DNA of 36,620 nt from Alphaproteobacteria bacterium (GTDB lineage Bacteria > Pseudomonadota > Alphaproteobacteria > Rhizobiales > Devosiaceae): assembly GCA_024279575.1 (NCBI GenBank), contig JAJRRJ010000045.1, forward strand, positions 1 through 36,620. The letters are read 5' to 3'. Each line of letters starts with the position of its first letter. Position 1 is the first letter of the stretch. Both the position numbers and the translations under genes were made by a program. Below the pieces are notes generated by a model. It was not told the origin of the DNA. It searched no databases and saw nothing but the letters and a program-made list of their open reading frames with translations. Of this stretch, positions 15,827 to 35,348 are shown piece by piece.

Positions 15827-15896
15827 TTCCCGTATGTCCTCAGATTTTAGGCCGTTGTCGTTCAGGGCAACGCGCGCTGCTTATTAAAGTCTTGAA

Positions 15897-17413: not shown

Positions 17414-18579
17414 TATTCTCCCTTTTCTGAACTTGGTTTTGGCATGTTTTCAGGGTCGACCACTTCCTGGTCTTTAGTGGGGTCCTTTCTGCGTAAAAAC
17501 CAGCTTGAAATCCGCCTCACCCCTTCCATGATGCCGCCAGGCAGGAACACAACCACCAGAACAAACATCGAACCAAGGGTTAAGTGCCAGCCTTCGCCAA
17601 CAAACTTGGAGGAAATCAGCACCACGAAGCCCTCTATATTATCAGGCAGGAAAGCAAAGAAATTGTGCAATATGCTCTCGTTCCAGGCGGAGAAAATATT
17701 CTCAAAATACTTGATAATCCAGGCGCCAATTACTGGGCCAACCAGTGTGCCAACTCCCCCAAGAATAGTCATAAGAACCAATTCGCCAGAAGCCGTCCAC
17801 TGCATACGCTCAGCCCCCGCCAGCGGATCAGTTACAGCAAGAAGTCCACCCGCAATTCCCGCATACATGCCTGAAATAACAAAAGCTGTCAGCATATAGG
17901 GCTTGGTGTTAAAGCCGGTATAGTTCATGCGGTCTTCGTTGGATTTTATACCCTTAAGCATCATGCCAAATGGGGATGATGCAATTTTTTGAGCAATAAA
18001 AAATCCGATCAGTAAAATCACCGCACAGAAATAAAACCCCTCATACCCATTCATTGGAATACCAAAAAGGCTCGAAGTTGGCAGAGAAACACCGCGCTCC
18101 ATAAACATCAGGTCGATTGTTCTGGGGTCCTGCAAAGTCAATTGCAACCCGTTTTCACCATGGGTAATAGGGCTGAGAACTGAATAGGCGAGTTTATAAC
18201 TCATCTGAGCAAATGCCAGCGTGAGGATTGAAAAATAAATGCCGGAACGTCTCAGGGAAACATAACCGATCGCCAGAGCAAATATACCGGAAAATATCAT
18301 CGCACAGGCCAGTGCCAAAATCGGGTTCATCGACAAAAGCTTAAACGACCAGACAGCCGCATAAGAGCCGACTCCCAGAAAGGCTGCATGGCCAAAGCTG
18401 AGATAACCGGTCAAGCCAAACAAAATATTATAACCAACTGCCAGCAATGCATAGATTGCAAACTTTTGCAGCAATCCAGGGTAAGACGCACCAAATGGAC
18501 TTAACCAGATAGGCATGGTCAGAACAACGAGGGCAAACAGCAAAAACGTAATGGCGTCTTTTTTGGGAATACTAAACAT
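17413..18579 (-). CDS. ABC transporter permease (LivM-type)
   Basis: 388 aa, polytopic, with [16 protein letters not shown] typical of LivM-type permeases. Confidence 0.9.
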
Positions 18580-18580
18580 C

Positions 18581-19609
18581 TTAATTCTCCATCACGCCAC
18601 GTTTGCCCAGCAAACCACGAGGGCGCACCAGCAGAATAATAACTGCCACCAGATAAATAATGACCTGATCGATTCCGGGAATAATGTCCTTAACCTCCGT
18701 CATTGACGCAAGGGACTGAACCACGCCCAGCGTGAAACCAGCCAGAACTGCGCCCGGAAGCGAGCCCATACCACCCACCACCACAACGATGAATGTAAGA
18801 ACCAAAAAGTCCATACCAAGCGTGTAATCGGGCGGCAAAATCGGTGTGTACATCACACCGGCAACCCCGGCAACAACCGCAGCAATGCCGAACATAATGG
18901 TGAACCTTCTATCTATATTGATGCCTAGCATCGAGACGGTTTCCCTGTCCGACATGCCGGCCCGTACAACCATACCAAATGTGGTAAATCGTAAGAAAGC
19001 AAAAACAGCCCCGATCACCCCAAGAGAGAAGAACAAATAGACTAATCGCCATTTGGGGTAAGTTATAACATGTTCTGCCATTCCAACCATTACACCAAGA
19101 TCAGCAGCCCCCATAAACACCTGAGGTATCGGCTGAGGATTGGGGTTTGCACCAAAAAATGCCTTTACGATTTCCTGTAAAACAATCGCCAGCCCAAACG
19201 TCACCAGAATTTGTTCGGCATGGGGGCGCTTGTAAAAATGTTTAATCAGGCCTCGCTCCATTACAATGCCAATAAGCAACATGACGGGAATAGCCAATAA
19301 TATTGAAAGCGGTACCGAATAGTCGAGCAACACATTACCAAAATCACCAAACCATTGCTGGGCAAATGGCGTGCGGATTTCAAGTGGTGTCCCCCAGGGG
19401 GAAAGTTCGGTTTCGCTCAGAACCACTTTTTCAAGTGTCAAAATTTTACGGAATGTCACGGCACAAAACGCACCGATCATGAACAAAGCGCCGTGAGCAA
19501 AATTCACAACACCAAGAGTGCCAAAAACAAGGGTCAGCCCCAAGGCGATCAGCGCATACGCTCCGCCTTTATCAAGACCATTAAGGACCTGCAAAATTAC
19601 CGCGTCCAT
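18581..19609 (-). CDS. ABC transporter permease (LivH-type) with an insertion of about 50 aa after TM2
   Basis: N-terminus [48 protein letters not shown]. At 342 aa it is longer than the 291-aa LivH-type paralog at 33399-34274. The extra segment is [34 protein letters not shown]. Confidence 0.9.
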
Positions 19610-19644
19610 ATTTCCCCCCCGCTATGGAAAAAGTTGAGTTAAGT

Positions 19645-19672
19645 TATCGGAGCGACGAATGTCGCTCCGATA
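19645..19672. other. perfect 12-bp intercistronic stem-loop between the binding-protein gene and the first permease gene
   Basis: tatcggagcgac-gaat-gtcgctccgata, read directly from the sequence. It sits in the 95-nt gap between 19609 and 19705 and has no adjacent U-tract. Confidence 0.6.
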
Positions 19673-19704
19673 TGATTATTGATATTTTATTGTGCAGGTC
19701 TTTA

Positions 19705-21048
19705 CTAAACTTCGTAAGGACCAAGCTCACCACCAAAGATTGAAGCATCATACTCAACCTGAGAACGGGGAACTTCCTGCACAACTTCAAGAAGATCAAA
19801 TTGTGACGTTGGATTTTGATTACCACGCACCACAAGAACATCTTTGAAACACTGGTGATCTTCAGCACGATATTCAGTTGGACCATTGCCCATGCCATCG
19901 AACTTGTGACCTTCAAGCGCCTTGATAACTTCAGGCGGATAAAGAGTGCCAGCACGCTCGCACGCATCAGCATAAAGCAATGTCTGCACATAGCATGTAT
20001 GAGCTGCCTGAGATGGCGGGAAGCCATATTCAGCACCAAATGACTTAACAAAAGCTGCTGAACCAGCATTTTGCAGTGACCAGTTCCAGTTTGATGTACC
20101 AAGAATACCCTTGATGTTTTCACCGGCACCCTGCGCCATAAGACGTGAGAACAAAGGCACAATAATCTCGATATTTTTACCATTTGCCTGACGATCACGA
20201 AGACCAAACTGAATAGCCTGAGTCAGCGAGTTCACCATATCCTTGCCATAGTGGTTCAAAACAACAACATCAGCACCGGAGTTTAGAATTGGTGTAATAT
20301 ACTGGCTGAAGTCACCGGCACCAACTGGTGTCAGAACATTTTTTTCAGTTTCCCAACCAAGTGCTTCAGTAGCATTTTGGATTGATTCCTGTTGTGTCCA
20401 GCCCCAGTTATAATCAGCTGTCAGGTGATAGGCGCGACGATCATTGCCATATTCGTCTTCCAACACAGGCGCTAACGCTGCACCGGACATATAGGCATTG
20501 AAGAAATGTCTAAAGCCATAGCGCTTTTTATCTTTACCCGTTGTATCATTTGAGTGGGTAAGACCTGCCATAAAGATCGTGCCCATTTCCTGACACAGCG
20601 CCTGCACCGCAACCGCCACACCAGAAGAAGAACCACCAGTAATGATCAAAGCACCATCACGTTCAATCATGCGGCGCGCACTGTCGCGGGCGGCGTCTGA
20701 TTTGGTTTGGGTGTCGCCGGTAACATAGGTAACTTTTTGACCTAAAATACCGTTACCTTTAAGATTAGATGGTTGCATAGTATTCAGCATGCCGCCATCA
20801 CCTTCACCGTTCAGGTGTTTTACAGCAAGTGTATAGGCGCGCAGTTCGTCGGCACCCTCATCAGAATAAGGGCCGGTTTGCGGTACGTTAAAGCCAAGCA
20901 CCACGTCCCCACCCTTGGGGTCATTGCGGAATTCCTGTGCCCAGGCACCCTTGGTAAAAACCATTGGTGCGACACCGGCAGTGAATAAGCCTGCAGCGCC
21001 GGTCTTAATGACCTTGCGCCTGCTTATGTCTTTCTTCTGATCGCTCAT
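19705..21048 (-). CDS. periplasmic substrate-binding protein (Liv/HAAT-type fold) with a twin-arginine signal peptide
   Basis: The N-terminus is MSDQKKDISRRKVIKTGAAGLFTAGVAPMVFTKGAWAQ (Tat-like RRKVIK plus an AxA site). It is 447 aa, has a strong SD (AGGAGG 6 nt upstream) and is the first gene of the ABC-acs operon. The ligand is unknown. Confidence 0.88.
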   Translation of the reverse strand: MSDQKKDISRRKVIKTGAAGLFTAGVAPMVFTKGAWAQEFRNDPKGGDVVLGFNVPQTGPYSDEGADELRAYTLAVKHLNGEGDGGMLNTMQPSNLKGNGILGQKVTYVTGDTQTKSDAARDSARRMIERDGALIITGGSSSGVAVAVQALCQEMGTIFMAGLTHSNDTTGKDKKRYGFRHFFNAYMSGAALAPVLEDEYGNDRRAYHLTADYNWGWTQQESIQNATEALGWETEKNVLTPVGAGDFSQYITPILNSGADVVVLNHYGKDMVNSLTQAIQFGLRDRQANGKNIEIIVPLFSRLMAQGAGENIKGILGTSNWNWSLQNAGSAAFVKSFGAEYGFPPSQAAHTCYVQTLLYADACERAGTLYPPEVIKALEGHKFDGMGNGPTEYRAEDHQCFKDVLVVRGNQNPTSQFDLLEVVQEVPRSQVEYDASIFGGELGPYEV

Positions 21049-21201
21049 AGCGTTCCTCCTCGTGAAAAGAATGTGACCACGCCAGAACCTCCCCTAGCAT
21101 CCCACACAAACTTAACTGTTGCCCAAATATGAAAACCAACGCAATAGGCGCTTGTTTTTTAATGTAAAATTTGTCAATGCTTTTAGCAAAAGGTTACTTT
21201 T

Positions 21202-21219
21202 TTGTAAAAACCTTTACAA
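21202..21219. promoter_or_regulatory. candidate operator: inverted repeat TTGTAAA-N4-TTTACAA in the divergent promoter region
   Basis: A perfect 7-bp inverted repeat is read directly at 21202-21219. A related half-site, tgtaaaatttgtca, lies at 21163-21176. The site is in the 196-nt gap between the binding-protein gene and the regulator gene. It resembles TTTGCAAA-type RamB boxes as I recall them. Confidence 0.3.
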
Positions 21220-21244: not shown

Positions 21245-21835
21245 ATGCGTGCGCCAATTGGACTAAGAATTAGGAACTACCGGAAAATCAAGGGCTTATC
21301 CCAGTCAAACCTGGCTAAATCCATATCCATTTCCCCCTCTTATCTGAACCTGATCGAAGCCAACAAAAGAGATGTAGGGGGAAAACTTTTACATTTGTTG
21401 GCTAAGGAGCTGGATGTAAACCTTCATGACCTCACTGGAGAATCTGAAACACGCCTCATAAATGAGTTGCGCGAAGCATTTGCAGACCCGCTACTGGCTT
21501 CCTTAAACCTGACCCATGAAGATGCCCACCTGATCGTGGCGCAGTTGCCTCAAATGGCCCGCGCCCTGCACACATGCTATCGGGGATACCTCGATGCAAG
21601 CGCCTCGGCAAACGCTTTGGCAAACCGGCTTGATTCAGACCCCCTGTTTTCCCAGCTTCTGCACCAGATGCTATCCCAGATCACCGCAATTCGTTCAACA
21701 GCTGAAATCCTGCGCGATGTGCCGGATATGGAGCAGGGTCAACGTATCACTTTTGATACTTCTGTTTTTGAACAAAGCCGCTCGCTAACGGATGTTGCCC
21801 GCTCCCTGATCGCCCAGTTCGATCAAGATGTGTAA
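21245..21835 (+). CDS. N-terminal fragment (XRE-type HTH) of a ScfR/RamB/PrpR-family short-chain acyl-CoA regulator, ended by an in-frame TAA
   Basis: IGLRIRNYRKIKGLSQSNLAKSISISPSYLNLIEANKRDV is an XRE HTH. The ORF track opens at TTG 21119. The first ATG is at 21245. The stop at 21833-21835 is in the same frame as the next ORF. Confidence 0.75.
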   Translation: MRAPIGLRIRNYRKIKGLSQSNLAKSISISPSYLNLIEANKRDVGGKLLHLLAKELDVNLHDLTGESETRLINELREAFADPLLASLNLTHEDAHLIVAQLPQMARALHTCYRGYLDASASANALANRLDSDPLFSQLLHQMLSQITAIRSTAEILRDVPDMEQGQRITFDTSVFEQSRSLTDVARSLIAQFDQDV

Positions 21836-21928
21836 CAGCACCACTCTTCCTCCCCGCTACGCGAAGTCAATGATCTTATTATCGGTGAAAACAACTACTT
21901 CCCACGCCTCGAAGATGCCGCCGCAAAA

Positions 21929-22804
21929 ATGAGCGAGGGATATGGCCTCAAAACACCACCCAATGAAGACACACTGCGCCATTTACTATCGGTTCTCCAT
22001 CATGAGGCCGATACAGACCCGCTTGAAACAAAGCCTGAGGGGGATGAACACGGCAACCAAAGTAGCATACTTGATCAAAAAAATGATTTGCCCCTGGCGC
22101 AGGCAACCAGACGCTTTCAATTGGCCCGAAAAATTGTCGTGCTAAACTGCCATACCATTCTCAGGGAAATGATCGATGACCCACGATTAACCTCAAGCGA
22201 ATCCAAAGATATCGCGTTCAAAGCATTGACTTCATATTGTGCCGGGGCAGTTCTATTCCCCTATCATAAATTTTTGAAAGACGCGCAACGCTCTTTGTAT
22301 GATGTTGAATATCTGGCGCAGCTATATGGAGGCAGCTTTGAACAAATCGCCCATCGGCTTGTCACATTACGCGCCCCTGCAACCCACGGTATCCCGTTTG
22401 GATTTTTACGCACTGACCCCTCTGGTTTTCTTACCAAACAATTTCCCCTGCCCGGCCTTCTCATGCCCAATGCAGGGCATGCCTGCCCGCTTTGGGTAAT
22501 ATATCGCTCAGCACAATCCCCCAATCAGGTAATGCGGCAGATTGTTTCGTTTACTGACGGCTCCCGCTACCTTTTCATTGCCAAAACATCGATTAAACGC
22601 GTTGAAACATTTAACAATACATCTGTTTTTTCCACGGTGATGCTTGCGTGCAACCTTATTCAGGCTGACCAAACCACTTACGCCACCTCATTGCGCCTTG
22701 ACCAGCCAGAATATGATACACCGGTTGGACCAGCATGCAATTTATGTACGCGCCAACAATGCACACATAGAAACACCCCTATGGCAGCGGCGCAACTGAA
22801 CTGA
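21929..22804 (+). CDS. C-terminal fragment (IrrE-like and DUF2083-like sensor part) of the same ScfR/RamB/PrpR-family regulator
   Basis: YCAGAVLFPYHKFL, GGSFEQIAHRLVTL, GIPFGFLRTDPSGFLTKQF, ACPLW and the Cys cluster GPACNLCTRQQCTHR match the family. The frame is open from 21836 and is identical to the frame of 21245-21835. Confidence 0.75.
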   Translation: MSEGYGLKTPPNEDTLRHLLSVLHHEADTDPLETKPEGDEHGNQSSILDQKNDLPLAQATRRFQLARKIVVLNCHTILREMIDDPRLTSSESKDIAFKALTSYCAGAVLFPYHKFLKDAQRSLYDVEYLAQLYGGSFEQIAHRLVTLRAPATHGIPFGFLRTDPSGFLTKQFPLPGLLMPNAGHACPLWVIYRSAQSPNQVMRQIVSFTDGSRYLFIAKTSIKRVETFNNTSVFSTVMLACNLIQADQTTYATSLRLDQPEYDTPVGPACNLCTRQQCTHRNTPMAAAQLN

Positions 22805-22870: not shown

Positions 22871-23275
22871 ATGAGGGCAATCGGGTCCCCTGATATTCTT
22901 ATTGTCGAGGATGAACCTGCGATTTTGACATCGCTGGAATTTATCCTGCAACACGCAGGCTGGAAAACGCAAACTGTCACTGATGGCGAAGCCGCCATCA
23001 GGGCCGTACAAGTTTTGCTACCCAAAATTATGGTGCTGGACCTGATGCTCCCCAAAAAAAACGGGTTCGAAGTGCTCAAAATCATTCGCGGCCAATCCGC
23101 AACCAAAAACCTGCCGGTTTTAATCCTGACAGCGAAAGGCCAGCAGCAGGACAAACAAACCGCCAAAGAATTGGGTGCCAGCGGATTTGTAACTAAACCT
23201 TACGCCAATACGGACGTAATTGACGCAGTTGCAGATCTCATCGGCACAGTCTCCAAAGCAGACTTAAGCCTGTGA
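22871..23275 (+). CDS. single-domain response regulator (CheY-like receiver, no output domain)
   Basis: VEDE acidic pocket, VLDLMLP phospho-Asp, LILTAKG Thr and VTKPY Lys are all present. Good SD (GGGAGG). 134 aa. Confidence 0.9.
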   Translation: MRAIGSPDILIVEDEPAILTSLEFILQHAGWKTQTVTDGEAAIRAVQVLLPKIMVLDLMLPKKNGFEVLKIIRGQSATKNLPVLILTAKGQQQDKQTAKELGASGFVTKPYANTDVIDAVADLIGTVSKADLSL

Positions 23276-23556
23276 CCAGCCCCAAACAAACCTCTGACAA
23301 GAAAACCTCTGAAACACGTGTGAGAAAATGTAAGTTTGCTGCACTGTTATTACCGATATTGGGTGTCTTGCTGATTATTCCACCACTCGTTTCCATGCGG
23401 ACCACTCAAAACGCAGTTATTTTGGGTATACCTGCCAATATTGCCTATCTGTTTGGCGCGTGGTTGGCGATGATCGTCGGTGCCTATGTCCTTCAAAAGC
23501 TGATGCCCAATGTGCTGACAAGCGCCATCCACGCCAAGGATGACGAAAGTGATTAG
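23272..23556 (+). CDS. small 2-TM membrane protein (DUF3311-like accessory peptide of a sodium:solute symporter domain)
   Basis: 94 aa with two hydrophobic helices (FAALLLPILGVLLIIPPLV and ILGIPANIAYLFGAWLAMIVGAYVL). Its GTG overlaps the receiver stop (GTGA). Its stop overlaps the start of the kinase gene. Confidence 0.55.
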   Translation: MTSPKQTSDKKTSETRVRKCKFAALLLPILGVLLIIPPLVSMRTTQNAVILGIPANIAYLFGAWLAMIVGAYVLQKLMPNVLTSAIHAKDDESD

Positions 23557-26278
23557 CGGGACGCTGGTTTTTGGCACATCCATTGCCTATATCATTTTGC
23601 TTTTTTTCCTGGCCTATATCTCCGACCGAAACGCACGCCTTGGCAAAGGAAAACTACTACGCTCTCCGCTGGTTTTTACGCTTGCGTTATCGGTTTATTG
23701 CACAAGCTGGACATTTTATGGCGCCGTAGGGTCAGCCGCGCGCAACGGCCTGGAGTTTTTTGCAATCTATCTGGGACCAACACTGGTGTTTGTGGGGTGG
23801 TGGTTCGGGTTGCGCAAACTCATCCGCATTGGCCACAAGCAACGTATCACCTCCATTGCAGATTTCGTGTCGTCTCGATTTGGGAAATCCGAGCGGCTGG
23901 CCATTCTGATTACCATCATGGCCGTTGTCGGAATCACACCCTATATTGCATTGCAGCTCAAGGCGATTTCCACATCCCTGCGGGTGATATTAACCGAGTC
24001 CCCAAACGCTGCCCTCCCCCAGAGCGGCGACGAAGTGGGATTGGCATTTGGCGTTGCAGCGGCCATGGCTTTGTTCTCGGTAATGTTTGGCACACGAAAC
24101 ATCAACGCCAACGAGCAGCATCACGGGGTCGTTGCAGCCATCGCCTTTGAGGCAATTATCAAGTTTATTGCCCTGATTGCAGTCGGGTTATTCGTGGTGT
24201 TTGGGCTTGGGGGCGGTTTTGAGGCCACATACGCCCGCGCCCAGGGCGTGGGAGTTTCACTTGATGCTTCAAGCAATTTTGGCCCCCGCTGGATTACAAT
24301 TACAATTTTGTCCGCCGCCGCAATAATTTGCCTGCCCCGCCAGTTCCAGATTACCGTTGTGGAAAATGCCAACGAAAACCACCTCAGAACCGCCTCATGG
24401 GCTTTCCCTCTTTACCTGTTTGGCATTTCCATTTTCACCATGCCCATTGCAATAATGGGGTTGAGTTTACTGCCAGAAGGGGCAGACCCGGACATGTTTG
24501 TTCTCACACTACCCCTCGCCTACGATCAACAGGGCCTCGCTTTATTTGCTTTTATCGGTGGTTTCTCAAGCGCAACCTCAATGATCATCATTGCATCCAT
24601 CGCACTTTCAATCATGATTTCAAATCACATCGTGGTTCCCCTTGCTCTCAGATCTCCAAAAGTATTTGGACTGGAACATGGCCAAGGCATGACACGGCTT
24701 TTGCTTACCAGCCGTCGCGTCAGTATCGGGGCGATCCTGTTTCTTGGTTTCTTATATTTCTGGCTTACCTCCGGTTCCGGCGCCCTTGCCCCGATCGGAC
24801 TGATTTCCTTTGCCGGTGTTGCCCAGTTTTTACCAGCCATATTAGCCGCCCTTTATTGGCGCGATGCTACCGTTAACGGCGCTCTTGCGGGGTTATTGGT
24901 GGGGTTTGCCTTCTGGGCATATACAAGTTTTCTGCCAAGTTTTGGCACGGCCAGTCCAGTCATTACCAACCTGTTGCTTTATGGGCCCTGGCAGCTTGAG
25001 TTTTTGCGACCCCAGGCCCTATTCGGCCTTGAACAGCTGGACCCGTTGGTTCACTCGGTATTCTGGAGCCTGCTGGCAAATTCCATGGCGCTGATTTTTG
25101 TTTCATTTGTCACCCGGAACAACGCCGTAGGCCAATTGCAGGCGGCGCAGTTTGTAGATGTATTCAAACAAACAGAAAACAGCCAATACAGCTTTACGCG
25201 CTCCTCAGCCCCCTTGAATGACTTACTGGTTATGACTCAGCGGGTTTTGGGAACTGACCACGCAAACAGAATATTTGAAACCTATTCAAACTCCGATCGC
25301 ATAAAGCAGAATAAAGACGCCTCCCCTCACTTTATCGCCAGTTTGGAAAAAGAGCTGGCCGGCTCAATTGGCGCAGCCTCTGCCCATGTGCTTTTAGGAC
25401 AGGTTGTATCGGGTGACACCGTCACGCTGGAGGAAGTCATGCAAATGGCTGACGAAACCCAGCAAATTCTGGAATATTCCCAACGTCTTGAGCAGACGGC
25501 AGAAGAACTTCAATCAACAACCCGTCAACTTCAAACCGCAAATAATCAACTGCGCCAGCTTGACCAGCAAAAGGACGAATTTTTATCACAAGTCAGCCAC
25601 GAAGTGCGTACTCCCATGACAGCTATTCGATCTTTTTCTGAAATCCTGCTGACCAATCAGGAGCTGAATGGCACCCAAAAAGAAACATTCATCAACACCA
25701 TCCACGAAGAAAGTATGCGCCTGACCAGTCTTTTAGACGAAATTCTGGACCTTAATGCGCTGGAAAGAAACGAGCAGCTCTGGACCAATGAGCCCATAAA
25801 TCCAAATCTGGCGATTGCCCGCTCAATTCAGGTTTGCACCCCGATTACCGAGCAGCATCAGATGGACGTGCGCCTTGGGGAGCATATCAGACATGTAAAG
25901 GTTGAAGCTAATTTTGACCGGATTTGTCAGGTGTTTATCAATCTTATTTCCAACGCCGCTAAATATAATGATGCGGACCAGCCATTTTTAGAAATCACCA
26001 GCGAAATAACCAAGGCACCTGGAAAACCTGACCAATTACTCATCAGGTTCACCGATAACGGGCCCGGCATATCTTCCATTCACAGCAGCATCATTTTTGA
26101 CAAATTCTGGAGGGGCGCCCGCAACCCTGACACCGCCCAGTCTGGTTCCGGCCTGGGATTGGCAATTTCCAAAGAAATACTCAACCAAATGAACGGATCA
26201 CTGGAACTGGAACTGCCCAGGATCGGCAATACCAAAGCCGGGGCTTGTTTTGCCGTTCGTCTCCCCCTTCATATGTAG
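23540..26278 (+). CDS. sensor histidine kinase fused to an N-terminal SLC5 (sodium:solute symporter) domain, CbrA/CrbS-like
   Basis: The N-terminal ~500 aa are polytopic and resemble CbrA (YCTSWTFYGAVGSAARNGLEFFAIYLGP, RITSIADFVSSRFGKS). They are followed by a soluble STAC-like segment and a coiled coil. The H-box is SHEVRTPMTAI, and the remaining kinase motifs are N-box ISNAAKY, G1 DNGPGI and G2 GSGLGLAISKEI. There is no receiver domain. The start could instead be GTG 23549 (AAGGA 8 nt upstream). Confidence 0.92.
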   Translation: MTKVISGTLVFGTSIAYIILLFFLAYISDRNARLGKGKLLRSPLVFTLALSVYCTSWTFYGAVGSAARNGLEFFAIYLGPTLVFVGWWFGLRKLIRIGHKQRITSIADFVSSRFGKSERLAILITIMAVVGITPYIALQLKAISTSLRVILTESPNAALPQSGDEVGLAFGVAAAMALFSVMFGTRNINANEQHHGVVAAIAFEAIIKFIALIAVGLFVVFGLGGGFEATYARAQGVGVSLDASSNFGPRWITITILSAAAIICLPRQFQITVVENANENHLRTASWAFPLYLFGISIFTMPIAIMGLSLLPEGADPDMFVLTLPLAYDQQGLALFAFIGGFSSATSMIIIASIALSIMISNHIVVPLALRSPKVFGLEHGQGMTRLLLTSRRVSIGAILFLGFLYFWLTSGSGALAPIGLISFAGVAQFLPAILAALYWRDATVNGALAGLLVGFAFWAYTSFLPSFGTASPVITNLLLYGPWQLEFLRPQALFGLEQLDPLVHSVFWSLLANSMALIFVSFVTRNNAVGQLQAAQFVDVFKQTENSQYSFTRSSAPLNDLLVMTQRVLGTDHANRIFETYSNSDRIKQNKDASPHFIASLEKELAGSIGAASAHVLLGQVVSGDTVTLEEVMQMADETQQILEYSQRLEQTAEELQSTTRQLQTANNQLRQLDQQKDEFLSQVSHEVRTPMTAIRSFSEILLTNQELNGTQKETFINTIHEESMRLTSLLDEILDLNALERNEQLWTNEPINPNLAIARSIQVCTPITEQHQMDVRLGEHIRHVKVEANFDRICQVFINLISNAAKYNDADQPFLEITSEITKAPGKPDQLLIRFTDNGPGISSIHSSIIFDKFWRGARNPDTAQSGSGLGLAISKEILNQMNGSLELELPRIGNTKAGACFAVRLPLHM

Positions 26279-26299: not shown

Positions 26300-26821
26300 T
26301 TAGCGGCACTCATCCTTTTTCACCACATTCAAGCCTGTTTTTTGCAAAACAAAATCCGCAATTTTTTGCGTGTCCTGCAAATCAAATTGGGGAATATCCA
26401 TGCTGGGGAAAGTTTTGTCCGATGCCAAAGCCACAACAGTTTCATCCTCCCTTGCAATCAGGTCCTGACCTGACACCGCCAAACTGGTTTCGATTTTCTG
26501 GTGGGTATCCCGCTTGTATCCTTCAATCAAAACCAGATCGCACGGGGTCAGCAATTCAAGCAATGTGCTCAAATCAGGTTCATTCCCCTCACCAACCTCA
26601 TGCATCAATGCCCACCGATGCCGCGACGCCAGTAAAACCTCACCGGCCCCAGCCACCCGATGGCGATGACTGTCTTTTCCCGCGTGGTCAATATCAAAAG
26701 TATGATGGGCGTGCTTAATTGTACTGACAGAAAAACCACGCGCTGAAATTTCAGCAACCAGGCGTTCCATCAACCCTGTTTTGCCAGAGTTTTTCCACCC
26801 AACAACACCAAATATTTTCAT
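26300..26821 (-). CDS. mobB: molybdopterin-guanine dinucleotide biosynthesis adaptor protein MobB
   Basis: GWKNSGKT P-loop, STIKHAHH, DSHRH. 173 aa. It overlaps mobA by 4 nt. Confidence 0.92.
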   Translation of the reverse strand: MKIFGVVGWKNSGKTGLMERLVAEISARGFSVSTIKHAHHTFDIDHAGKDSHRHRVAGAGEVLLASRHRWALMHEVGEGNEPDLSTLLELLTPCDLVLIEGYKRDTHQKIETSLAVSGQDLIAREDETVVALASDKTFPSMDIPQFDLQDTQKIADFVLQKTGLNVVKKDECR

Positions 26822-27456
26822 ACTTCCTCATCCCTGACCAAAGTATTGGCCATCGCCAGATCATCCATCGTATTCACATTAAAAAACGGATCAATTGCCT
26901 GATAGTCAAATACAGCGCTGGAACAGCCATAGGTTTCAGCCCATTGCCCAACCTTGCGTACGCCCCCTGCTAAAGCCTGACGCAAGTCCTGGCGCACTGT
27001 AACAGCCCACAGACCAAAAACAGGATGACGCATCAAACCCTTTTGAGGATCATGCGAAGCTGCAAGAACGATAGGCTGCTTTTGCAAACGCGCACTTTTT
27101 TGCAACTCCACAACCAGATCGCACGGGAAAAACGGCGTATCCACTGCCACACTGACCACATGCGTTGCCCCCTTATTTACAGCCCAGTCCAGGCCCGCAA
27201 GAATTCCCGCCAACGGACCCAAATACCCCTGAATACTGTCTTCTGTCACCTCAAGTCCAAAGTCATTAAACCGCGCCGGATCACCGTTGGCACTGATCAC
27301 CAAAGACTGTACCTGTGGCTGCAACCTCCTAACCACCCGCAAGAGCATTGTTTGCCCCCCAAGATCAAACAGCCCCTTATCCAGGCCATTCTTTGAACGC
27401 CCCATGCGCCGCGCCTGACCACCAGCTAAAATTACTCCAACAGGCTTTTGCGACAC
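26818..27456 (-). CDS. mobA: molybdenum cofactor guanylyltransferase MobA
   Basis: GVILAGGQARRMG motif, GPLAGILAGL, VDTPFFP. GTG start. 212 aa. Confidence 0.9.
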   Translation of the reverse strand: MSQKPVGVILAGGQARRMGRSKNGLDKGLFDLGGQTMLLRVVRRLQPQVQSLVISANGDPARFNDFGLEVTEDSIQGYLGPLAGILAGLDWAVNKGATHVVSVAVDTPFFPCDLVVELQKSARLQKQPIVLAASHDPQKGLMRHPVFGLWAVTVRQDLRQALAGGVRKVGQWAETYGCSSAVFDYQAIDPFFNVNTMDDLAMANTLVRDEEV

Positions 27457-27642: not shown

Positions 27643-28806
27643 CTATTTGCGGAAAACTTCTTTCCAGTTTTCACTTTCAATTACTGAAATCACAATTTCA
27701 TTGGCTCCACTGTGATCTTCAGCCGTGTAGTTCATCTGACCACCCAGAATCTCATCAAAATAGTCCAGGCTTTCCATGCCAGCTCTGAATGTTTCTGAAT
27801 TCAGGTCAGGACCGGCAGCTTCAAGAGCCCGCACCATAACCTCAGCACCTGAACGCCCAAGCAATGCACCGGTGCTTGGAATTTGCTCACCGGATGCTGC
27901 CAGATAGCTCTGCACCCATTCGCCAACAGCAGGGTTGCCCATACGTGGCAAAACATCGGACCATACAGCAGCAGCGTAAAGTCCTTCAGTGATACCACCT
28001 GGGGCCTTGGCCATGACGGAATGGAAACCGGCAGCCGATGAAATAAAGCTTACATCAGTAAAACCGATCTTACCGGCGGTAGCGTAAGCTGTAATTGTCT
28101 GGCGAACGCCAAGAGCCATTGCAACGATCTGACAGTTGGCTTCTTTAAGCTTGCTCAGCGCGCCCACAAAATCCCCATCATCAGGGCGATGGGTTGTTTC
28201 AGCCGCATAAGTCAGCCCCAGTGCTTCTGCTTCATCCATTGCACCTGCTTGAATTTCTTTGCCGAAATCCGATGGAATAAACATGGCGCAAATATTGCTC
28301 GCACCTTTTTCTTCCACAAGGTAGGACACACCGGTTCTGATCTGGTCATAATAGGATGCGCCGGGCGAATAGCGGTAATCAATCGGCTCTTCCACCAGTT
28401 GGCGCGCCATAGTCAACGGAAAGACGTTGGGAATTTGTTTGGATGCCAATAGCGGGAAAGACGCAATATTCATTGGTGTACCCACTCCAAGGAACATCGC
28501 AAACACCTGATCACGGTTAACCAGTTTGTTCAAACCCGACGTCGATTTGGGCAACTGATAGCCATGGTCTTCAACGATGAACTTGATTTGACGACCATGC
28601 ACACCACCGTTGGCATTCACTTCATCAAAATACATTTGTGCAGCTTTTACTGCCGGAGCGCCAAAAGCTGCAAAAATACCGGACAAATCAGTGTTGGAAC
28701 CAATCCTGACTTCGGTGTCCGTCACCCCTTGAGTTTGCGCAAAGCTGCCGCTGGCAAGCAACGCGCCCACGCTAATCGCAGCTGCGAGTTTCAGTAAACG
28801 TTTCAT
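27643..28806 (-). CDS. periplasmic substrate-binding protein (Liv/HAAT-type), Sec signal peptide
   Basis: MKRLLKLAAAISVGALLASGSFAQ signal peptide, with GGGAG 6 nt upstream of the ATG at 28806. The ORF-track start at 28872 would overlap the ligase gene. The mature part looks Peripla_BP_6-like (VRIGSNTDLSG...VNANGGVHGRQIKF). Confidence 0.88.
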   Translation of the reverse strand: MKRLLKLAAAISVGALLASGSFAQTQGVTDTEVRIGSNTDLSGIFAAFGAPAVKAAQMYFDEVNANGGVHGRQIKFIVEDHGYQLPKSTSGLNKLVNRDQVFAMFLGVGTPMNIASFPLLASKQIPNVFPLTMARQLVEEPIDYRYSPGASYYDQIRTGVSYLVEEKGASNICAMFIPSDFGKEIQAGAMDEAEALGLTYAAETTHRPDDGDFVGALSKLKEANCQIVAMALGVRQTITAYATAGKIGFTDVSFISSAAGFHSVMAKAPGGITEGLYAAAVWSDVLPRMGNPAVGEWVQSYLAASGEQIPSTGALLGRSGAEVMVRALEAAGPDLNSETFRAGMESLDYFDEILGGQMNYTAEDHSGANEIVISVIESENWKEVFRK

Positions 28807-28822
28807 GTTAGTCTCCCTTTTT

Positions 28823-30736
28823 TTAAGAATTATACATTTGGTCAATAAGCGCTTTGTAGCGTTTTTCAACAAAGCCCCGCTTTAGTTTCATCGTTGCAGT
28901 CAACTCATCATCTTCCGCCGTCAATATTATGTCGATCAGGCGAAAATTCTTTATCTGCTCGACTCGGGCAAATTCCGTATTGACCTGCTCAATGATCGAA
29001 CCAATCAGTTCCTGCACTTCTTTGGTTGCACAAAGAGAGGCAAAATTGGAGAATGGCACTTTACGGTCCTGCGCAAATTTTTCAACATTTTCCTGATCTA
29101 TCATAACCAGACAAGTGAGGTATTTACGTTTGTCACCGATCACAACCACATCAGAAATATGGGCAAATGACTTAAGTTTGTTTTCAATCTGTGAAGGGGT
29201 AATGTTTTTGCCCCCCGCTGTAATAATGATATCCTTTAAGCGGCCAATAACGGAAAGAAAACCATCCTCATCAATGCTGCCAAGGTCACCAGTGCGCAAA
29301 AACCCGTCCTTGGTCATGGTCTCTGCCGTTTTCTTTGGCGCATTCCAATAACCGGGAAATACATTTCCACCCTTGAACTGAATTTCCCCCCCCTCTGAAA
29401 TCCGCAAAGTCACTCCGGGAATTGCCTGGCCCACAGTGCCATTTTTATTACGATCAACCATGTTGACGGTAGTGACCCCACCCCCTTCGGTTTGCCCAAG
29501 ACCTTCGACCAGATTAACTCCAATTGAGCGATACCATTTCAGCAAATCAGGAGAAATGGGTGCAGCACCGGTAATGGCACGTCGCACATTTCCCAGTCCA
29601 AGCATGCGGCGAAGGTTTTTCAAAACAAACAAATTCCAAAAACCATATCGCAATTGAACAAAAGCAGGCACAGGATTATTGGCAATCGTATAATCAGATC
29701 GTGCCTGCCCCGCTTCAAGAGCTCGCGCAAAGGCAAATTTCCCAAACGGCGTGCCGTCCTCAATCATTAACATAACGCGCGAATAAATTTTTTCCCACAC
29801 CCGTGGTACCGCTGTGAACACATCGGGCGCAACTTCCTGCATATTGTCAAAAATAGTCTCAGTACTTTCAACGAAGTTAACAATAGTTTTTGAAGCAATA
29901 GGTGAGTAAATTGAGGTATTACGTTCCAATACATGGCATAAAGGCAAAAAGCACAACTGCTCATCTTTTTCGAAATACGGCAGCACCCGAAGCGAAGAGC
30001 CAATAATAAACATGATATTGGAATTATTGATCATTGCACCTTTAGGCATTCCGGTGGTGCCCGAGGTATAAATCAGCAACCCCACATCCTCAGGGCGAGA
30101 CTTGGCAATTTCCTGCTCAAACCTGTCCGGATTTTCCTGATGCAGCTTTTCACCAAGATCATAAAGTTCATCCAGAAACATGGATTTTGGATGCTTAAAA
30201 TCATGCAGCCCATCCCGTTCCAGAATGATAACTTTCTCAATTGCAGTAATATCACCCTCAGACTCGAGGAACTTATCCAGCATTTCATCATTTTCAACAA
30301 ACAAGAACCGGCTGGTTGAGTCATTGAGCAAATAGGCCACCTGAGCAGGTGCATCTGTGGTATATATACCCGAAGCAATCCCCCCAACACATTGAATGCC
30401 TAAATCCATATAGGCCCATTCTTTGTTGTCCTCAGACAGAATAGAAACCACGTCCCCGCGTTTCAGGCCAAGCGCCACCAGACCAAGGCCAATACGCCGG
30501 GCGTGGTCAAAATAGTCATTCCAACTGTGGGAGCGCCAGATCCCAAGAACCTTTTCCCGATGAGCGGTACGCGCGCCCAACTCCTTGCAGCGCAGGGAAA
30601 ACAGCTTGCTTACCGTATCACAGCCATCCACAAAAAATGGTCCCTGATGCATATCCTCATTTGAGGAAACTCCCATAATTGTCACTTGAGGCGGCATGGG
30701 CGATACGCTGTTTTTATCGAGATGTTTGTTGCTCAC
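28823..30736 (-). CDS. AMP-dependent acyl-CoA synthetase/ligase (FadD-like) embedded in an ABC operon
   Basis: YTSGTTGMPKGA AMP-binding motif, TGDLGSIDEDGFLSVIGRLKD, and a C-terminal LKRGFVEKRY. The likely start is GTG 30736, preceded by AGGAGG and a 5-nt spacer. The frame is open to 30742. Confidence 0.9.
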   Translation of the reverse strand: MSNKHLDKNSVSPMPPQVTIMGVSSNEDMHQGPFFVDGCDTVSKLFSLRCKELGARTAHREKVLGIWRSHSWNDYFDHARRIGLGLVALGLKRGDVVSILSEDNKEWAYMDLGIQCVGGIASGIYTTDAPAQVAYLLNDSTSRFLFVENDEMLDKFLESEGDITAIEKVIILERDGLHDFKHPKSMFLDELYDLGEKLHQENPDRFEQEIAKSRPEDVGLLIYTSGTTGMPKGAMINNSNIMFIIGSSLRVLPYFEKDEQLCFLPLCHVLERNTSIYSPIASKTIVNFVESTETIFDNMQEVAPDVFTAVPRVWEKIYSRVMLMIEDGTPFGKFAFARALEAGQARSDYTIANNPVPAFVQLRYGFWNLFVLKNLRRMLGLGNVRRAITGAAPISPDLLKWYRSIGVNLVEGLGQTEGGGVTTVNMVDRNKNGTVGQAIPGVTLRISEGGEIQFKGGNVFPGYWNAPKKTAETMTKDGFLRTGDLGSIDEDGFLSVIGRLKDIIITAGGKNITPSQIENKLKSFAHISDVVVIGDKRKYLTCLVMIDQENVEKFAQDRKVPFSNFASLCATKEVQELIGSIIEQVNTEFARVEQIKNFRLIDIILTAEDDELTATMKLKRGFVEKRYKALIDQMYNS

Positions 30737-30745
30737 TGCCACCTC

Positions 30746-31522
30746 CTATCGCCACGTCTTGCGTTGTTTCCAACGCCTTGTGCCACGCTCGGTCTGCTCA
30801 CGCACCCCAAGGTAAAATGCCTGAATGTCTTTGGAATTTTGCAAAACCACCGCCTCATCTGACATGACGATACCACCCAGCTCCATCACATAACCATAGT
30901 CGGCAACCTCAAGTGCCACCCGCGCATTTTGTTCAACCAGTAACATGGTGACTTTTTGCTCTTCATTCAGGCGTTTGAGAATGACAAAAATCTCTTCAAC
31001 CAAAATAGGAGAAAGGCCCAGACTGGGCTCATCAAGCAACATCACTTTTGGAGCGGCCATGAGCCCGCGCGCAATGGCCAACATCTGCTGTTGCCCCCCT
31101 GAGAGCGTCCCCGCCGCCTGTTTTGCGCGTTCCCCAAGTATGGGGAAGTAGGAATAAACCATCTCCAGATCACGGGCAATTCCACCCTTGTCAGAACGGG
31201 AATAGGCACCAATCTCCACATTCTCAGCCACACTGAGCAATGGAAAAATTTCGCGCCCCTCAGGCACATGAACCAATCCCTGTTTGACGATGGCGTCTGC
31301 CTCGCTCCTGTGGATCGGCTGCCCATTCATGTGAATAGTACCCTTGGCTGCACTCATCACGCCCGAAATGGTTTTCAGCAATGTCGTTTTACCAGCGCCA
31401 TTGGCCCCAAGAATTGTAACGATCTGCCCTTGGCGGACCTCCAGGGATACACCCCGAATAGCCATAATAGGCCCATAATAGGCCTCCAGATTTTCCACTT
31501 GCAAAACAGCAGTTGCGCTCAT
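30746..31522 (-). CDS. ABC transporter ATP-binding protein (LivF-type) with a basic C-terminal tail
   Basis: GANGAGKTT, LSGGQQQMLAIARGL, MLLDEPSLGL. The tail is ERGTRRWKQRKTWR. Confidence 0.92.
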   Translation of the reverse strand: MSATAVLQVENLEAYYGPIMAIRGVSLEVRQGQIVTILGANGAGKTTLLKTISGVMSAAKGTIHMNGQPIHRSEADAIVKQGLVHVPEGREIFPLLSVAENVEIGAYSRSDKGGIARDLEMVYSYFPILGERAKQAAGTLSGGQQQMLAIARGLMAAPKVMLLDEPSLGLSPILVEEIFVILKRLNEEQKVTMLLVEQNARVALEVADYGYVMELGGIVMSDEAVVLQNSKDIQAFYLGVREQTERGTRRWKQRKTWR

Positions 31523-32295
31523 TCTTTTGCCCCCCCCGTTCCACCAAGGTAGGCCTTGATTACATCAGGATGCGACTGCACCTCAGAAGGCGTGCCAATG
31601 GCCAGTTCTTTGCCATCTGCCAGCGCCAAAACACGGTCTGAAACCGCTGACACCAAATTCATGTCGTGCTCAACCATAAGCACAGTAATGCCCATTTGCT
31701 TTTTGATGTCCTCAATCCAGAAAATCATGTCCTGCGTTTCTTCAACCGACAAACCCGAAGCCGGTTCATCCAGCAAAAGAACTTTTGGCTCGGTTGCCAG
31801 CGCACGCGCCAGTTCAACCACTTTGCGCACCCCATATGGCAATCCGGCAATGTACTTGTCGCGATAGGCCTGCAATTCCAAAAAGTCGATAACCTCTTCA
31901 ACCACTGCCCGGTGCCGTCGTTCTTCATCTCGAACTGAAGGGGAAAAAATCAACTGAGACAATAAGCCGTTTTTTGCATGTCGCTGTCGCCCCACAAGCA
32001 GGTTTTGCAACACCGTGGATTGTTCAAACAATTCAATATTTTGAAACGTGCGCGCAATACCAAGGGAAGGCACCTGATCAGGACGCTTGTTCAAAATTGT
32101 TTCACCGTTAAATAAAATATCCCCTTTTGCAGGAGTGTAAAACCGGGAGATCAGATTAAAAATTGTCGATTTTCCCGCCCCATTGGGCCCCACCAACGCA
32201 AAAACCTCGCCCTCACCCACATGGAAAGATACATTGTTGACCGCAACAAGCCCGCCAAATCGAAGCGTTACATTTTCAAGGGTCAGCAAACTCAT
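31519..32295 (-). CDS. ABC transporter ATP-binding protein (LivG-type)
   Basis: GPNGAGKST, LPYGVRKVVELARAL, LLLDEPASGL. Confidence 0.92.
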   Translation of the reverse strand: MSLLTLENVTLRFGGLVAVNNVSFHVGEGEVFALVGPNGAGKSTIFNLISRFYTPAKGDILFNGETILNKRPDQVPSLGIARTFQNIELFEQSTVLQNLLVGRQRHAKNGLLSQLIFSPSVRDEERRHRAVVEEVIDFLELQAYRDKYIAGLPYGVRKVVELARALATEPKVLLLDEPASGLSVEETQDMIFWIEDIKKQMGITVLMVEHDMNLVSAVSDRVLALADGKELAIGTPSEVQSHPDVIKAYLGGTGGAKE

Positions 32296-33389: not shown

Positions 33390-33398
33390 GGCTGAAAT

Positions 33399-34274: not shown

Positions 34275-34461
34275 CTTCGCAGCCCTCCCTAAATATGCAC
34301 GACGTCACTTTGACAAAGGATCTTCATTTCGAACATTTCAGACAAGAAACCACATTCACGCAATAAGGCCAAGGCCAAAATATATTTCAACACAGTTCAA
34401 TGATGTGAGCGTACTTGCCAAAGGTGCACACGTTGAAGCAAAACGTCTCGCTTTGGGTCGT

Positions 34462-35271: not shown

Positions 35272-35348
35272 TATTACCATGCTCCAGCTCGTGTTGCCCC
35301 AAAGTTTAGGTCAACATATCAAGCTTCACAACACCCACAAAACCGCCT

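Follow-up and report, generated by a model that had tools for sequence, protein, structure and literature searches.

The contig JAJRRJ010000045.1 of an alphaproteobacterium of the family Devosiaceae (assembly GCA_024279575.1), whose whole analyzed stretch of 36,620 bp we call the window, encodes a stand-alone receiver, a small membrane peptide with two transmembrane (2-TM) helices and a predicted SLC5/STAC-type histidine kinase. An earlier annotation made from the DNA letters alone, here called the sequence-only reading, described these three genes as a module with no output domain anywhere. This description has to be abandoned, since the three genes are the downstream three-quarters of a conserved unit that consists of an operon for acetate--CoA ligase (acs) and an ATP-binding cassette (ABC) transporter, a divergent promoter, and the gene string scfR-receiver-peptide-kinase. 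The first gene of this string encodes an ScfR-like helix-turn-helix (HTH) regulator, and this regulator carries a histidine-bearing insertion that resembles the dimerization and histidine phosphotransfer (DHp) domain of sensor kinases. In our best model, to which we assign a probability of about 0.55 based on the sequence comparisons described below, the receiver would signal to ScfR.

The C-terminal part of the window regulator matches the Pfam families ScfRs (E = 3.9e-37) and Peptidase_M78 (E = 1.9e-10), and the ScfR translation contains the sequence CNLCTRQQC, a C-x2-C-x4-C motif whose role in ScfR-type regulators has been described (PMC6765138). The profile of the ScfR family aligned to MtPrpR (6cyj) with E = 2.8e-82. 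In this alignment, profile positions 63-130 and 203-515 of ScfR correspond to chain residues 19-85 and 96-403 of MtPrpR, and the 72 ScfR profile positions that lie between the aligned blocks face just ten residues in PrpR. The resulting insertion of ~70 amino acids (aa) is missing in MtPrpR and in a paralogue on the same Maritalea contig. This paralogue, a second and classical ScfR of Maritalea porphyrae (L007:11822-13327, minus strand), keeps the C-x2-C-x4-C motif, is devoid of the DHp-like insertion and adjoins no two-component system.

A first hint of the nature of the insertion was a weak match of the NCBIfam model CreC to the middle region of ScfR. A second hint came from loci without ScfR, in which the tblastn matches of the HTH open reading frame (ORF) fell inside the kinase gene. 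The segments compared are SDPLFSQLLHQMLSQITAIRSTAEILRDVPDMEQGQRITFDTSVFEQSRSL in ScfR and KDEFLSQVSHEVRTPMTAIRSFSEILLTNQELNGTQKETFINTIHEESMRL in the kinase. Profile-profile comparison with hhalign related the full ScfR alignment to the kinase alignment with a probability of 96.4% (E = 1.3e-9), and the insertion alone matched the kinase family with a probability of 97.1% (E = 6.2e-11) over 56 columns at 34% identity; His140 of ScfR was aligned to H687, the phospho-accepting histidine of the kinase. The Pfam model HisKA recognized the insertion in 20 of 36 ScfR members at E <= 1, with a best value of 3.9e-4. Among 120 distant ScfR members, seven carry a precomputed HisKA match, which was faint or weak in the one locus inspected. 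The insertion also gave weak matches to the DHp of HK853 (E 0.1-0.4). A search of the PDB with the short profile of the insertion was discarded because its top matches were spurious protein-A repeats.

The 78-aa insertion segment was compared exhaustively with 1.84 billion representative proteins, which yielded 238 clusters at E <= 0.001. Among the 150 matches listed, nearly all the full-length proteins (380-560 aa) carry the insertion at residues ~120-195. The histidine is present in 102 of the 103 full-length representatives, serine or threonine occupies the H+4 position in 101 of them, and 86 contain the ScfR Fe-S motif. An HMM (hidden Markov model) of the insertion gave a second, weaker match at kinase residues ~620-675, in the C-terminal STAC and coiled-coil portion, in loci without an adjoining ScfR (L053, L036, L032, L058, L064, L079, L031 and L043); this second match probably reflects generic helical similarity. 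An extra ORF of 217 aa between the ABC genes and the ScfR gene of one distant locus (L166:6058-6711) has a weak HisKA match and no ATPase domain, and may encode a free-standing DHp-like protein.

The similarity of the insertion in both helices and in the loop is greatest to the DHp of the neighboring kinase family, DHp domains are dimerization modules by nature, and the ScfR and kinase genes lie in one operon. These features would also suit a heteromeric four-helix bundle formed by the ScfR module and the kinase DHp, in which the membrane kinase sequesters or releases ScfR in the manner of a "trigger transporter" and the receiver only modulates this pairing or is a phosphatase substrate. We consider such a bundle improbable. 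The C-terminal half of helix 2, which makes up much of the dimer core, is not conserved between ScfR and the kinase (within-locus identity of ~0%), the invariant histidine would be left without a reason, and a ScfR-receiver pair in Azospirillum and a lone ScfR in Limnobacter have no adjoining kinase. When the insertion was compared with the DHp of the cognate kinase, 19.9 of 64 positions were identical, versus 19.35 with shuffled partners, which is a marginal excess.

The linkage of the regulator to the receiver and the kinase was examined across genomes. A scan at one genome per species found 79 loci with a related module, mostly in Devosiaceae (Devosia, Maritalea and Pelagibacterium) and otherwise in Phyllobacteriaceae, Rhodospirillales and Rhodomicrobium, with one distant locus in an Anaerolineales genome. 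Approximately 60 of these 79 loci share the same order, with the gene of the transporter's binding protein reading leftward and ScfR, receiver, peptide and kinase reading rightward. A complete genome (L080, with 10 kb of flank) illustrates this arrangement: acetyl-CoA synthetase, two ABC ATPases, two permeases and the binding protein are encoded on one strand, and an intact ScfR of 522 aa, a receiver of 127 aa, a peptide of 75 aa (an annotated gene) and a kinase of 911 aa are encoded on the opposite strand. The genes further downstream vary between loci; thus, we place the end of the unit at the kinase.

A scan of metagenomes seeded solely with the insertion motifs recovered 80 loci. The receiver and the kinase follow ScfR in all 59 of the metagenomic loci with at least 3.2 kb of downstream sequence, and the shorter contigs show as much of the module as fits. 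All five insertion-bearing plasmid records carry a kinase homologue, and adjacency was seen by coordinates or annotation where these records were inspected. Six loci of distant clades, whose ScfR proteins are 36-45% identical to one another, were also inspected. Four of them (Acuticoccus, Ferrovibrio and two other genomes) have the full string, the Azospirillum locus (L168:6001-8016) has an insertion-bearing ScfR and a receiver only, with no peptide or kinase nearby, and the sixth locus, in Limnobacter, has ScfR alone. A LIV-type ABC operon adjoins ScfR in all six.

Based on these observations, we propose the following course of events. The peptide would join the SLC5 domain as a membrane subunit, in the way that CbrX does in CbrA. 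A short-chain carboxylate, for which acetate is the most likely candidate, would be bound or transported, and this would change the conformation of the SLC5/STAC region and so set the activity of the kinase. The signal would run via STAC and then along an uninterrupted coiled coil into the DHp. Acetate is favored as the ligand because of the putatively co-regulated acs gene and the precedent of CrbS, since CrbS/R control acs (PMC9100948, PMC5715377). The kinase would then phosphorylate the receiver at D57, and the receiver would dock on the DHp-like module of ScfR, resulting either in phosphotransfer to His140 or in phosphorylation-dependent binding. ScfR would merge this external-substrate signal with its own acyl-CoA/[4Fe-4S] sensing and would act on the palindrome of the divergent promoter to control the ABC transporter/acs operon and perhaps the operon to which scfR itself belongs. 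In Alphaproteobacteria, single-domain receivers are known to relay to phosphotransferases of the DHp type, as exemplified by MrrA and PhyT (PMC5964349, PMC5898713). The more specific proposal that ScfR is the terminal phospho-acceptor of a His-Asp-His relay, from kinase H687 to receiver D57 to ScfR His140, is put forward tentatively, at less than even odds. The sequence-only reading had left three destinations for the signal, namely, the adjacent ScfR-like regulator, another protein or a phosphate sink; the first is favored by the DHp-like insertion, the conservation of its histidine, the linkage in 59 of 59 loci and the Azospirillum pair.

Alternatively, the receiver could act as a phosphate sink, or it could shuttle the signal to a partner encoded elsewhere (for example, an orphan regulator, a different kinase or the flagellar switch). 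ScfR would then be an acyl-CoA-responsive regulator of the operon that is merely co-located, and its insertion would serve only to di- or tetramerize the protein. This explanation would account for the receiver-peptide-kinase triads that have no adjoining ScfR, for a plasmid variant in Paracoccus denitrificans with different neighbors and for the FliN/FliM-like genes that lie beside the kinase in a few loci; the non-acidic residue at H+1 in the ScfR clade of the window and the fact that PrpR-type regulators already oligomerize (PMC6765138) are also compatible with it. Nevertheless, the near-invariance of the histidine and of serine or threonine at H+4 would be unexpected for a pure dimerization helix, and the helix-1 surface TAIRS.AEIL, which faces the receiver in kinases, is common to ScfR and the kinase. 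The co-occurrence of ScfR with receiver and kinase in the metagenomic loci, the retention of the ScfR-receiver pair without a kinase in Azospirillum and the restriction of FliN-like neighbors to five loci also argue against a sink or an unlinked target, which we judge to be unlikely.

Several observations weigh against a signal from the receiver to ScfR. None of the 36 ScfR members reaches the gathering score of HisKA. The residue at H+1 is glutamine in the ScfR clade of the window, and glutamate or aspartate is found there in only 42 of the 103 clusters. The insertion covaries only weakly with the DHp of the cognate kinase, and phylogeny confounds this signal, which is not used as evidence here. 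The DHp-like hairpin could be only a dimerization element. Approximately eight loci have receiver, peptide and kinase with no adjoining ScfR, and in the Limnobacter metagenome-assembled genome (L167:7001-8605), an insertion-bearing ScfR adjoins benzoyl-CoA-oxygenase-like genes with no receiver or kinase nearby. Plasmid 1 of P. denitrificans PD1222 (L081:7281-14181) carries the module without ScfR and with DUF294 and exonuclease neighbors. The order in this plasmid is a CBS-DUF294 nucleotidyltransferase-like gene, the peptide (81 aa, with an ATGA overlap), a PAS-less SLC5 kinase (901 aa), the receiver (121 aa), which is thus downstream of the kinase, and a PAS-exonuclease gene (706 aa). The acs gene is missing in several of the distant loci, which weakens the substrate guess drawn from this neighbor. 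Neither the STAC fold nor any complex could be confirmed from the structure predictions, which were of poor quality, and the ScfR gene of the window itself is interrupted. Finally, the architecture, the homologies, the conservation and the linkage are direct observations, and from there on, we infer the signaling steps.

The interruption of the window ScfR gene is a single TAA codon (21833-21835) within the one frame that spans 21245-22804, and it is located right after the DHp-like module. The coding sequence resumes in frame at 21836, and the acyl-CoA-sensing part could be produced only from the ATG at 21929. Relatives carry GAA or AAA at this codon. A product of 196 aa is found on the window contig only, since the relatives in the same 90%-identity cluster have 522-545 aa, and a pairwise comparison with one full-length relative gave 84% identity. 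Apart from the stop, both halves of the window gene are well conserved. The TAA may stem from a sequencing error, from a nonsense mutation that is very recent or from a split peculiar to this strain, and these origins are indistinguishable here. Because of this codon, the circuit of the window may be broken, split into two polypeptides or mis-sequenced.

The intergenic region between the two divergent operons contains a putative ScfR operator, the palindrome TGTAAA-N4-TTTACA at 21203-21218 (with flanks, TTTGTAAAAACCTTTACAAA), so that the candidate ScfR site reads TTTGTAAA-N4-TTTACAAA. This palindrome occurs once in the window, versus an expectation of 0.04, and 41 of 84 loci contain exactly one copy. 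Wherever gene positions were mapped, it is located a short way upstream of the ScfR start. Another TGTAAA box is found ~27 nucleotides (nt) upstream of the palindrome. The palindrome is a one-base variant of the TTTGCAAA boxes, which are bound by PrpR and RamB (PMC6765138), and ScfR sites typically comprise two similar boxes (PMC6765138, PMC10370305). An additional conserved element, CAATAnnnnnTTGTAAT, is present in the window at ~21130-21160 and at equivalent positions in ~50 loci. It lies between the genes of the binding protein and ScfR, on the upstream side of the TGTAAA boxes, and may serve as a promoter or as a second operator.

The operator also bears on another explanation, in which the DHp-like module would be a phosphatase or a reverse-transfer sink for the phosphorylated receiver, so that ScfR would tune the system by acyl-CoA and the real output would lie elsewhere. 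The insertion retains part of the HisKA phosphatase motif (H, E/D at +1, T/N at +4), with S/T at H+4 in 101 of 103 clusters and E/D at H+1 in 42 of 103, and ScfR has no catalytic ATPase domain. Nevertheless, the motif normally has T or N, not S, at H+4, and the system would be left without any identified output. ScfR has a DNA-binding domain and faces a promoter with a conserved putative operator, which makes it the obvious effector. We therefore give this explanation little credence and retain the signal from the receiver to ScfR as the preferred model.

The kinase was analyzed from its N-terminus to its catalytic core. Pfam assigned to it solely HisKA (residues 677-742, E = 7.2e-15) and HATPase_c (793-911, E = 9.8e-20); SSF and STAC gave nothing on the N-terminus even at E <= 10, and no PAS domain or fused receiver was found down to the same threshold. 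A precomputed SSF match exists for just one of 120 kinase homologues. Nevertheless, when the single sequence was compared with solved structures, residues 11-472 matched chain 10ed_A with E = 2.5e-69, and a profile of 39 kinase homologues extended the match to residues 5-528 with E = 3.1e-89, covering all 13 transmembrane helices. We took 10ed to be the cryo-electron microscopy structure of the SLC5-STAC part of Pseudomonas CbrA with CbrX bound (PMC13022988), because it contains a 606-residue "histidine kinase" chain and a 58-residue chain X and because its numbering fits that study.

The substrate-pocket residues of CbrA and the lysine of its Na2 site, K196, have been named (PMC13022988). In the alignment to 10ed_A, CbrA Y51, W55, F71, Y75 and F406 correspond to Y53, W57, F73, Y77 and F424 of the window kinase, and K196 corresponds to K208, which is invariant across the family. 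Three pocket positions of CbrA, S53, A56 and F248, are replaced by T55, T58 and S258. As most of the pocket residues and K208 are retained and three positions are changed, the SLC5 domain looks like a working and probably proton-coupled LeuT-fold pocket for a different substrate that is smaller or more polar; these replacements also make histidine an improbable substrate.

The region between the SLC5 domain and the kinase core was related to a published SLC5/STAC kinase, RpuS from strain NGR234 of Sinorhizobium fredii (PMC9100948), which is 40% identical to the window kinase over residues 5-656 (E = 2e-148). The alignment halts at residue 656, where the PAS_7 domain of RpuS starts (652-764), and picks up again at the DHp. 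Kinase residues ~557-630 align without a break to the region of RpuS in the STAC position, including the motif ELAGSIGAASAHV / LIAGALGAASARV. Based on the extent of this alignment, we consider kinase residues ~557-630 to be homologous to the STAC-position region of RpuS, the PAS domain to be absent and no receiver to be fused. AlphaFold2 predicted four helices for this region at low confidence (predicted local distance difference test score, pLDDT, of 63); a Foldseek search of this low-confidence model against the PDB gave no match at E <= 0.001, and the profile of the region matched no PDB sequence. The AlphaFold2 model of the full kinase, computed with the 39 homologues, had a mean pLDDT of 55.9 and was too poor for a fold search.

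In the kinase core, the residues of the H, N, G1, F and G2 boxes (H687, N801/N805, D839-G841-G843, F853 and G869-G871-G873) are invariant in the 39 homologues, and the closest solved structure is a pair of the HK853-RR468 type (4jas, E = 1.6e-27). From sequence comparison, the window protein thus appears as a kinase of the SLC5/STAC family by its SLC5 domain and its core, and by homology in the STAC position; it lacks two features of every characterized member, namely, PAS and a cognate regulator that binds DNA. The sequence-only reading had described the kinase as being of the SLC5/STAC type and akin to CbrA and CrbS, with intact HisKA and HATPase motifs and with neither PAS nor a fused receiver, and each of these points agrees with the CbrA and RpuS matches, the invariant boxes and the end of the RpuS alignment at PAS_7. 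Among the models by which it had proposed to verify this (SSF, STAC, HisKA and DUF3311), HisKA was found, and the other three were without a match at E <= 10.

The small ORF between the receiver and the kinase was examined in the same manner. Homologues of the peptide occur in the same position in ~70 genomic loci at 25-45% identity, and their alignment shows the conserved pattern RRK...G..PP...FG.P...Y.F..W. This pattern follows the layout of the peptide: the N-terminus is basic, PP closes the first hydrophobic helix, FG.P lies in a loop of 13 residues, and Y.F..W belongs to the second helix. The two hydrophobic segments have mean Kyte-Doolittle values of 2.1 and 1.6, and lysine and arginine are enriched before the first of them in 35 homologues; the peptide is predicted to be a 2-TM hairpin with both termini inside.

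No Pfam family was found in the window peptide at E <= 10. The label "DUF3311-like", which had been given to it earlier, was rejected, since DUF3311 (PF11755) did not match the window peptide at this threshold and matched two of 36 homologues with a best E of 0.022, which falls far short of the threshold of the model. Homology to CbrX was also rejected: the family profile matched chain 10ed_X with E = 7.3 and only in the second transmembrane helix, and phmmer gave no match. As sequence homology is undetectable, we call the peptide a positional and topological analogue of CbrX and not a family member, a comparison made on gene position and predicted topology. In P. putida, cbrX and cbrA overlap by 17 nt, and their translational coupling has been shown (PMC6591292). 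The earlier suggestion that the small ORF is coupled to the kinase as in cbrX-cbrA is consistent with this precedent, and coupling is predicted from the overlap in 66 of 70 loci. The accompanying idea of a mere tuner of kinase synthesis is outdated, given that CbrX is a stably bound 2-TM hairpin subunit on TM3/TM8 of the CbrA SLC5 domain (PMC13022988).

The receiver contains Response_reg as its only Pfam domain (E = 5e-26), and its set of phospho-acceptor residues is complete (E13/D14, D57, T87, F106 and K109). The presence of T87 and F106 indicates that it has the usual allosteric switch residues. Among solved structures, it is closest to receivers of the OmpR/PhoB type and to RR468 (E ~1e-18 for RR468), which partners HK853, and the receivers of the related loci, of 116-132 aa, likewise contain Response_reg alone. 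The sequence-only reading had taken this receiver without output to be the sole partner of the kinase; the description of the domain stands, and the exclusivity does not, since ScfR belongs to the same unit.

A 77-aa FliN-like gene lies convergent and just 3' of the kinase gene in four loci (L080, at 12942-13175, L003, L004 and L071), and a 390-aa FliM/FliN-family gene directly follows the kinase gene on plasmid pFER4 of Paracoccus ferrooxidans (L084:11691-12863). As a hint of an alternative, CheY-like target of the receiver, these neighbors were considered and set aside, because their occurrence in only five loci is too rare.

At the DNA level, the three ORFs overlap as previously described. 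The TGA stop of the receiver (23273-23275) overlaps the GTG start of the peptide at 23272 to form GTGA (23272-23275), and the TAG stop of the peptide (23554-23556) lies within the kinase start region, which holds ATG 23540 and GTG 23549. The overlap of peptide and kinase in the window is therefore 8 nt from GTG 23549 or 17 nt from ATG 23540. We assign the homologous kinase start to GTG 23549 (909 aa, 8-nt overlap), a prediction based on the junction xTGATTAG, which is common to the window and the four closest loci, on the nearest kinase relative (92% identical), which has 909 aa and no upstream ATG, and on the sequence AAGGA placed 8 nt upstream of this GTG. Among the 70 genomic loci, 66 show an overlap between the stop of the peptide and the start of the kinase, of 1 nt in 22, 4 nt in 39 and 8 nt in five of them, which argues that the arrangement of receiver, peptide and kinase is not due to chance. 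In each of the 70 genomic loci analyzed, as well as in the metagenomic loci, the receiver gene immediately precedes the peptide-kinase pair, and the three overlapping ORFs are conserved in ~130 related loci. No NCBIfam model reached its cut-off for the receiver, peptide or kinase ORF. The features of the window are collected in Table 1; the divergent operon, in addition to the genes listed there, holds two permeases (BPD_transp_2 x2) and two ATPases (ABC_tran x2), as assigned with Pfam.

Table 1. Features of the window discussed in the text, in order of position (strand "." denotes a site without orientation).
Feature	Position	Strand	Remarks
Divergent operon, LIV-type ABC transporter then acetate--CoA ligase	13880-21048	-	Probable regulatory target
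Acetate--CoA ligase	13880-15826	-	ACAS_N/AMP-binding; TIGR02188 AcsA, 996 bits vs cut-off 725
ABC binding protein	19705-21048	-	Peripla_BP_6
Putative ScfR operator boxes	21163-21218	.	TGTAAA 21163-21168; TGTCAA 21172-21177; palindrome 21203-21218
ScfR N-terminal fragment, 196 aa	21245-21835	+	XRE HTH (Pfam HTH_3), linker domain, whole DHp-like insertion
DHp/HisKA-like hairpin insertion in ScfR, residues ~128-192	21626-21820	+	H-box-like motif LLHQMLSQITAIRSTAEIL; His140 codon 21662-21664
ScfR C-terminal part	21929-22804	+	M78-like and ScfRs acyl-CoA/[4Fe-4S] domain, C-x2-C-x4-C motif
Receiver ORF, 134 aa	22871-23275	+	CheY/RR468 type; GGGAGG ribosome-binding site ahead
2-TM membrane peptide ORF	23272-23556	+	94 aa from GTG 23272; 78 aa if GTG 23320
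SLC5/STAC histidine kinase (predicted)	23549-26278	+	909 aa from GTG 23549; alternative ATG 23540
SLC5 domain of kinase	~23552-25123	+	Match to CbrA chain 10ed_A, residues 5-528
STAC region of kinase	~25208-25411	+	RpuS alignment; coiled coil follows
Kinase DHp	25568-25765	+	HisKA; H687 codon 25598-25600
Kinase catalytic domain	25916-26272	+	HATPase_c

The system was compared with known ones. It shares with CbrX-CbrA/CbrB of Pseudomonas the 13-TM SLC5 domain, the pocket aromatics and the Na2-site lysine, the linker in the STAC position, and a small 2-TM ORF directly upstream whose end overlaps the beginning of the kinase gene, by 17 nt in P. putida and by 8 or 17 nt in the window. Unlike CbrA/CbrB, it lacks PAS between STAC and DHp and has a bare receiver instead of the NtrC-type CbrB, and the window peptide is without significant sequence similarity to CbrX. 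The resemblance to CrbS/CrbR (MxtR/ErdR) and RpuS/RpuR, whose hybrid kinases control the utilization of acetate or pyruvate, lies in the SLC5 and STAC regions, over which RpuS shows the identity given above, and in the link of the CrbS/R regulon to genes of monocarboxylate uptake and activation, represented here by acs and a transporter (PMC9100948, PMC5715377). CrbS and RpuS have a PAS domain, a C-terminal receiver and LuxR-type regulators, whereas the window kinase has neither domain and is accompanied by a stand-alone receiver and an ScfR-type regulator. In addition, the transporter presumed to be controlled is an ABC system here, and not ActP or MctP.

Regarding the regulator, the window protein shares with the ScfR/IsaR group (PccR, RamB and MccR/MtPrpR) the XRE HTH, the M78-like domain and the ScfRs domain with its C-x2-C-x4-C [4Fe-4S] motif, as well as a gene divergent from the presumed target and paired palindromic boxes related to TTTGCAAA (PMC6765138, PMC10370305). 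It differs from this group by the DHp-like insertion of ~70 aa with a conserved histidine, located between the linker and the M78-like domain, and by being co-operonic with a receiver and a kinase. A stand-alone receiver between a sensor kinase and a DHp-like protein without an ATP-binding domain is also found in Spo0F-Spo0B, MrrA-PhyK/LovK and PhyT (PMC5964349, PMC5898713). In these known cases, the DHp-type protein is a separate phosphotransferase that passes the phosphate to another receiver (Spo0A or PhyR), whereas the DHp-like module here is part of the regulator that binds DNA, and a further receiver is not evident. The HisKA core and single-domain receiver of HK853-RR468 from Thermotoga are similar at the sequence level only; unlike the window kinase, HK853 has no transporter domain.

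We found no description of this module in the literature, where its only trace is a sentence on Pden_1785, an ScfR homologue of P. denitrificans that clusters with two-component genes (PMC10370305). Likewise, no description was found of a DNA-binding regulator controlled via a built-in DHp phosphotransfer domain, and the DHp-like module embedded in ScfR is most likely the part that specialists will find most surprising. SLC5/STAC "transceptor" kinases represent a widespread and poorly understood coupling of nutrient transport to gene control, and the members studied so far all contain PAS and work with classical DNA-binding regulators. The subfamily described here is large, with at least 8,000 scored kinase candidates, an architecture common to all 120 matches listed and the 238 regulator clusters mentioned above.

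A kinase reduced to transporter, STAC and core isolates the question of how motions reach the DHp without a PAS domain, and the DHp-like insertion of ScfR offers a concrete and testable answer to the destination of a receiver-only signal. If true, the proposed model would represent a new output logic for two-component signaling, and it would link the sensing of extracellular short-chain acids to the ScfR/IsaR regulators of acetate and propionate assimilation. In the more tentative His-Asp-His relay, one factor would join an extracellular carboxylate signal, in the form of phosphohistidine, with an intracellular acyl-CoA/[4Fe-4S] signal. With its four genes and single operator, the circuit is compact and could be reconstructed as a biosensor with two inputs.

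Downstream of the module, mobB and mobA (26300-27456, minus strand) are convergent with the kinase gene and lie 21 nt past its stop. Among the scanned loci, only L001 shares them, in agreement with a module that ends at the kinase. Further downstream, the window contains a second LIV-type ABC cluster (27643-35280, minus strand) that also encodes a short-chain dehydrogenase and an acyl-CoA ligase of the FadD11 type, and the binding protein of this cluster has a strong match only in L001 among the related loci.

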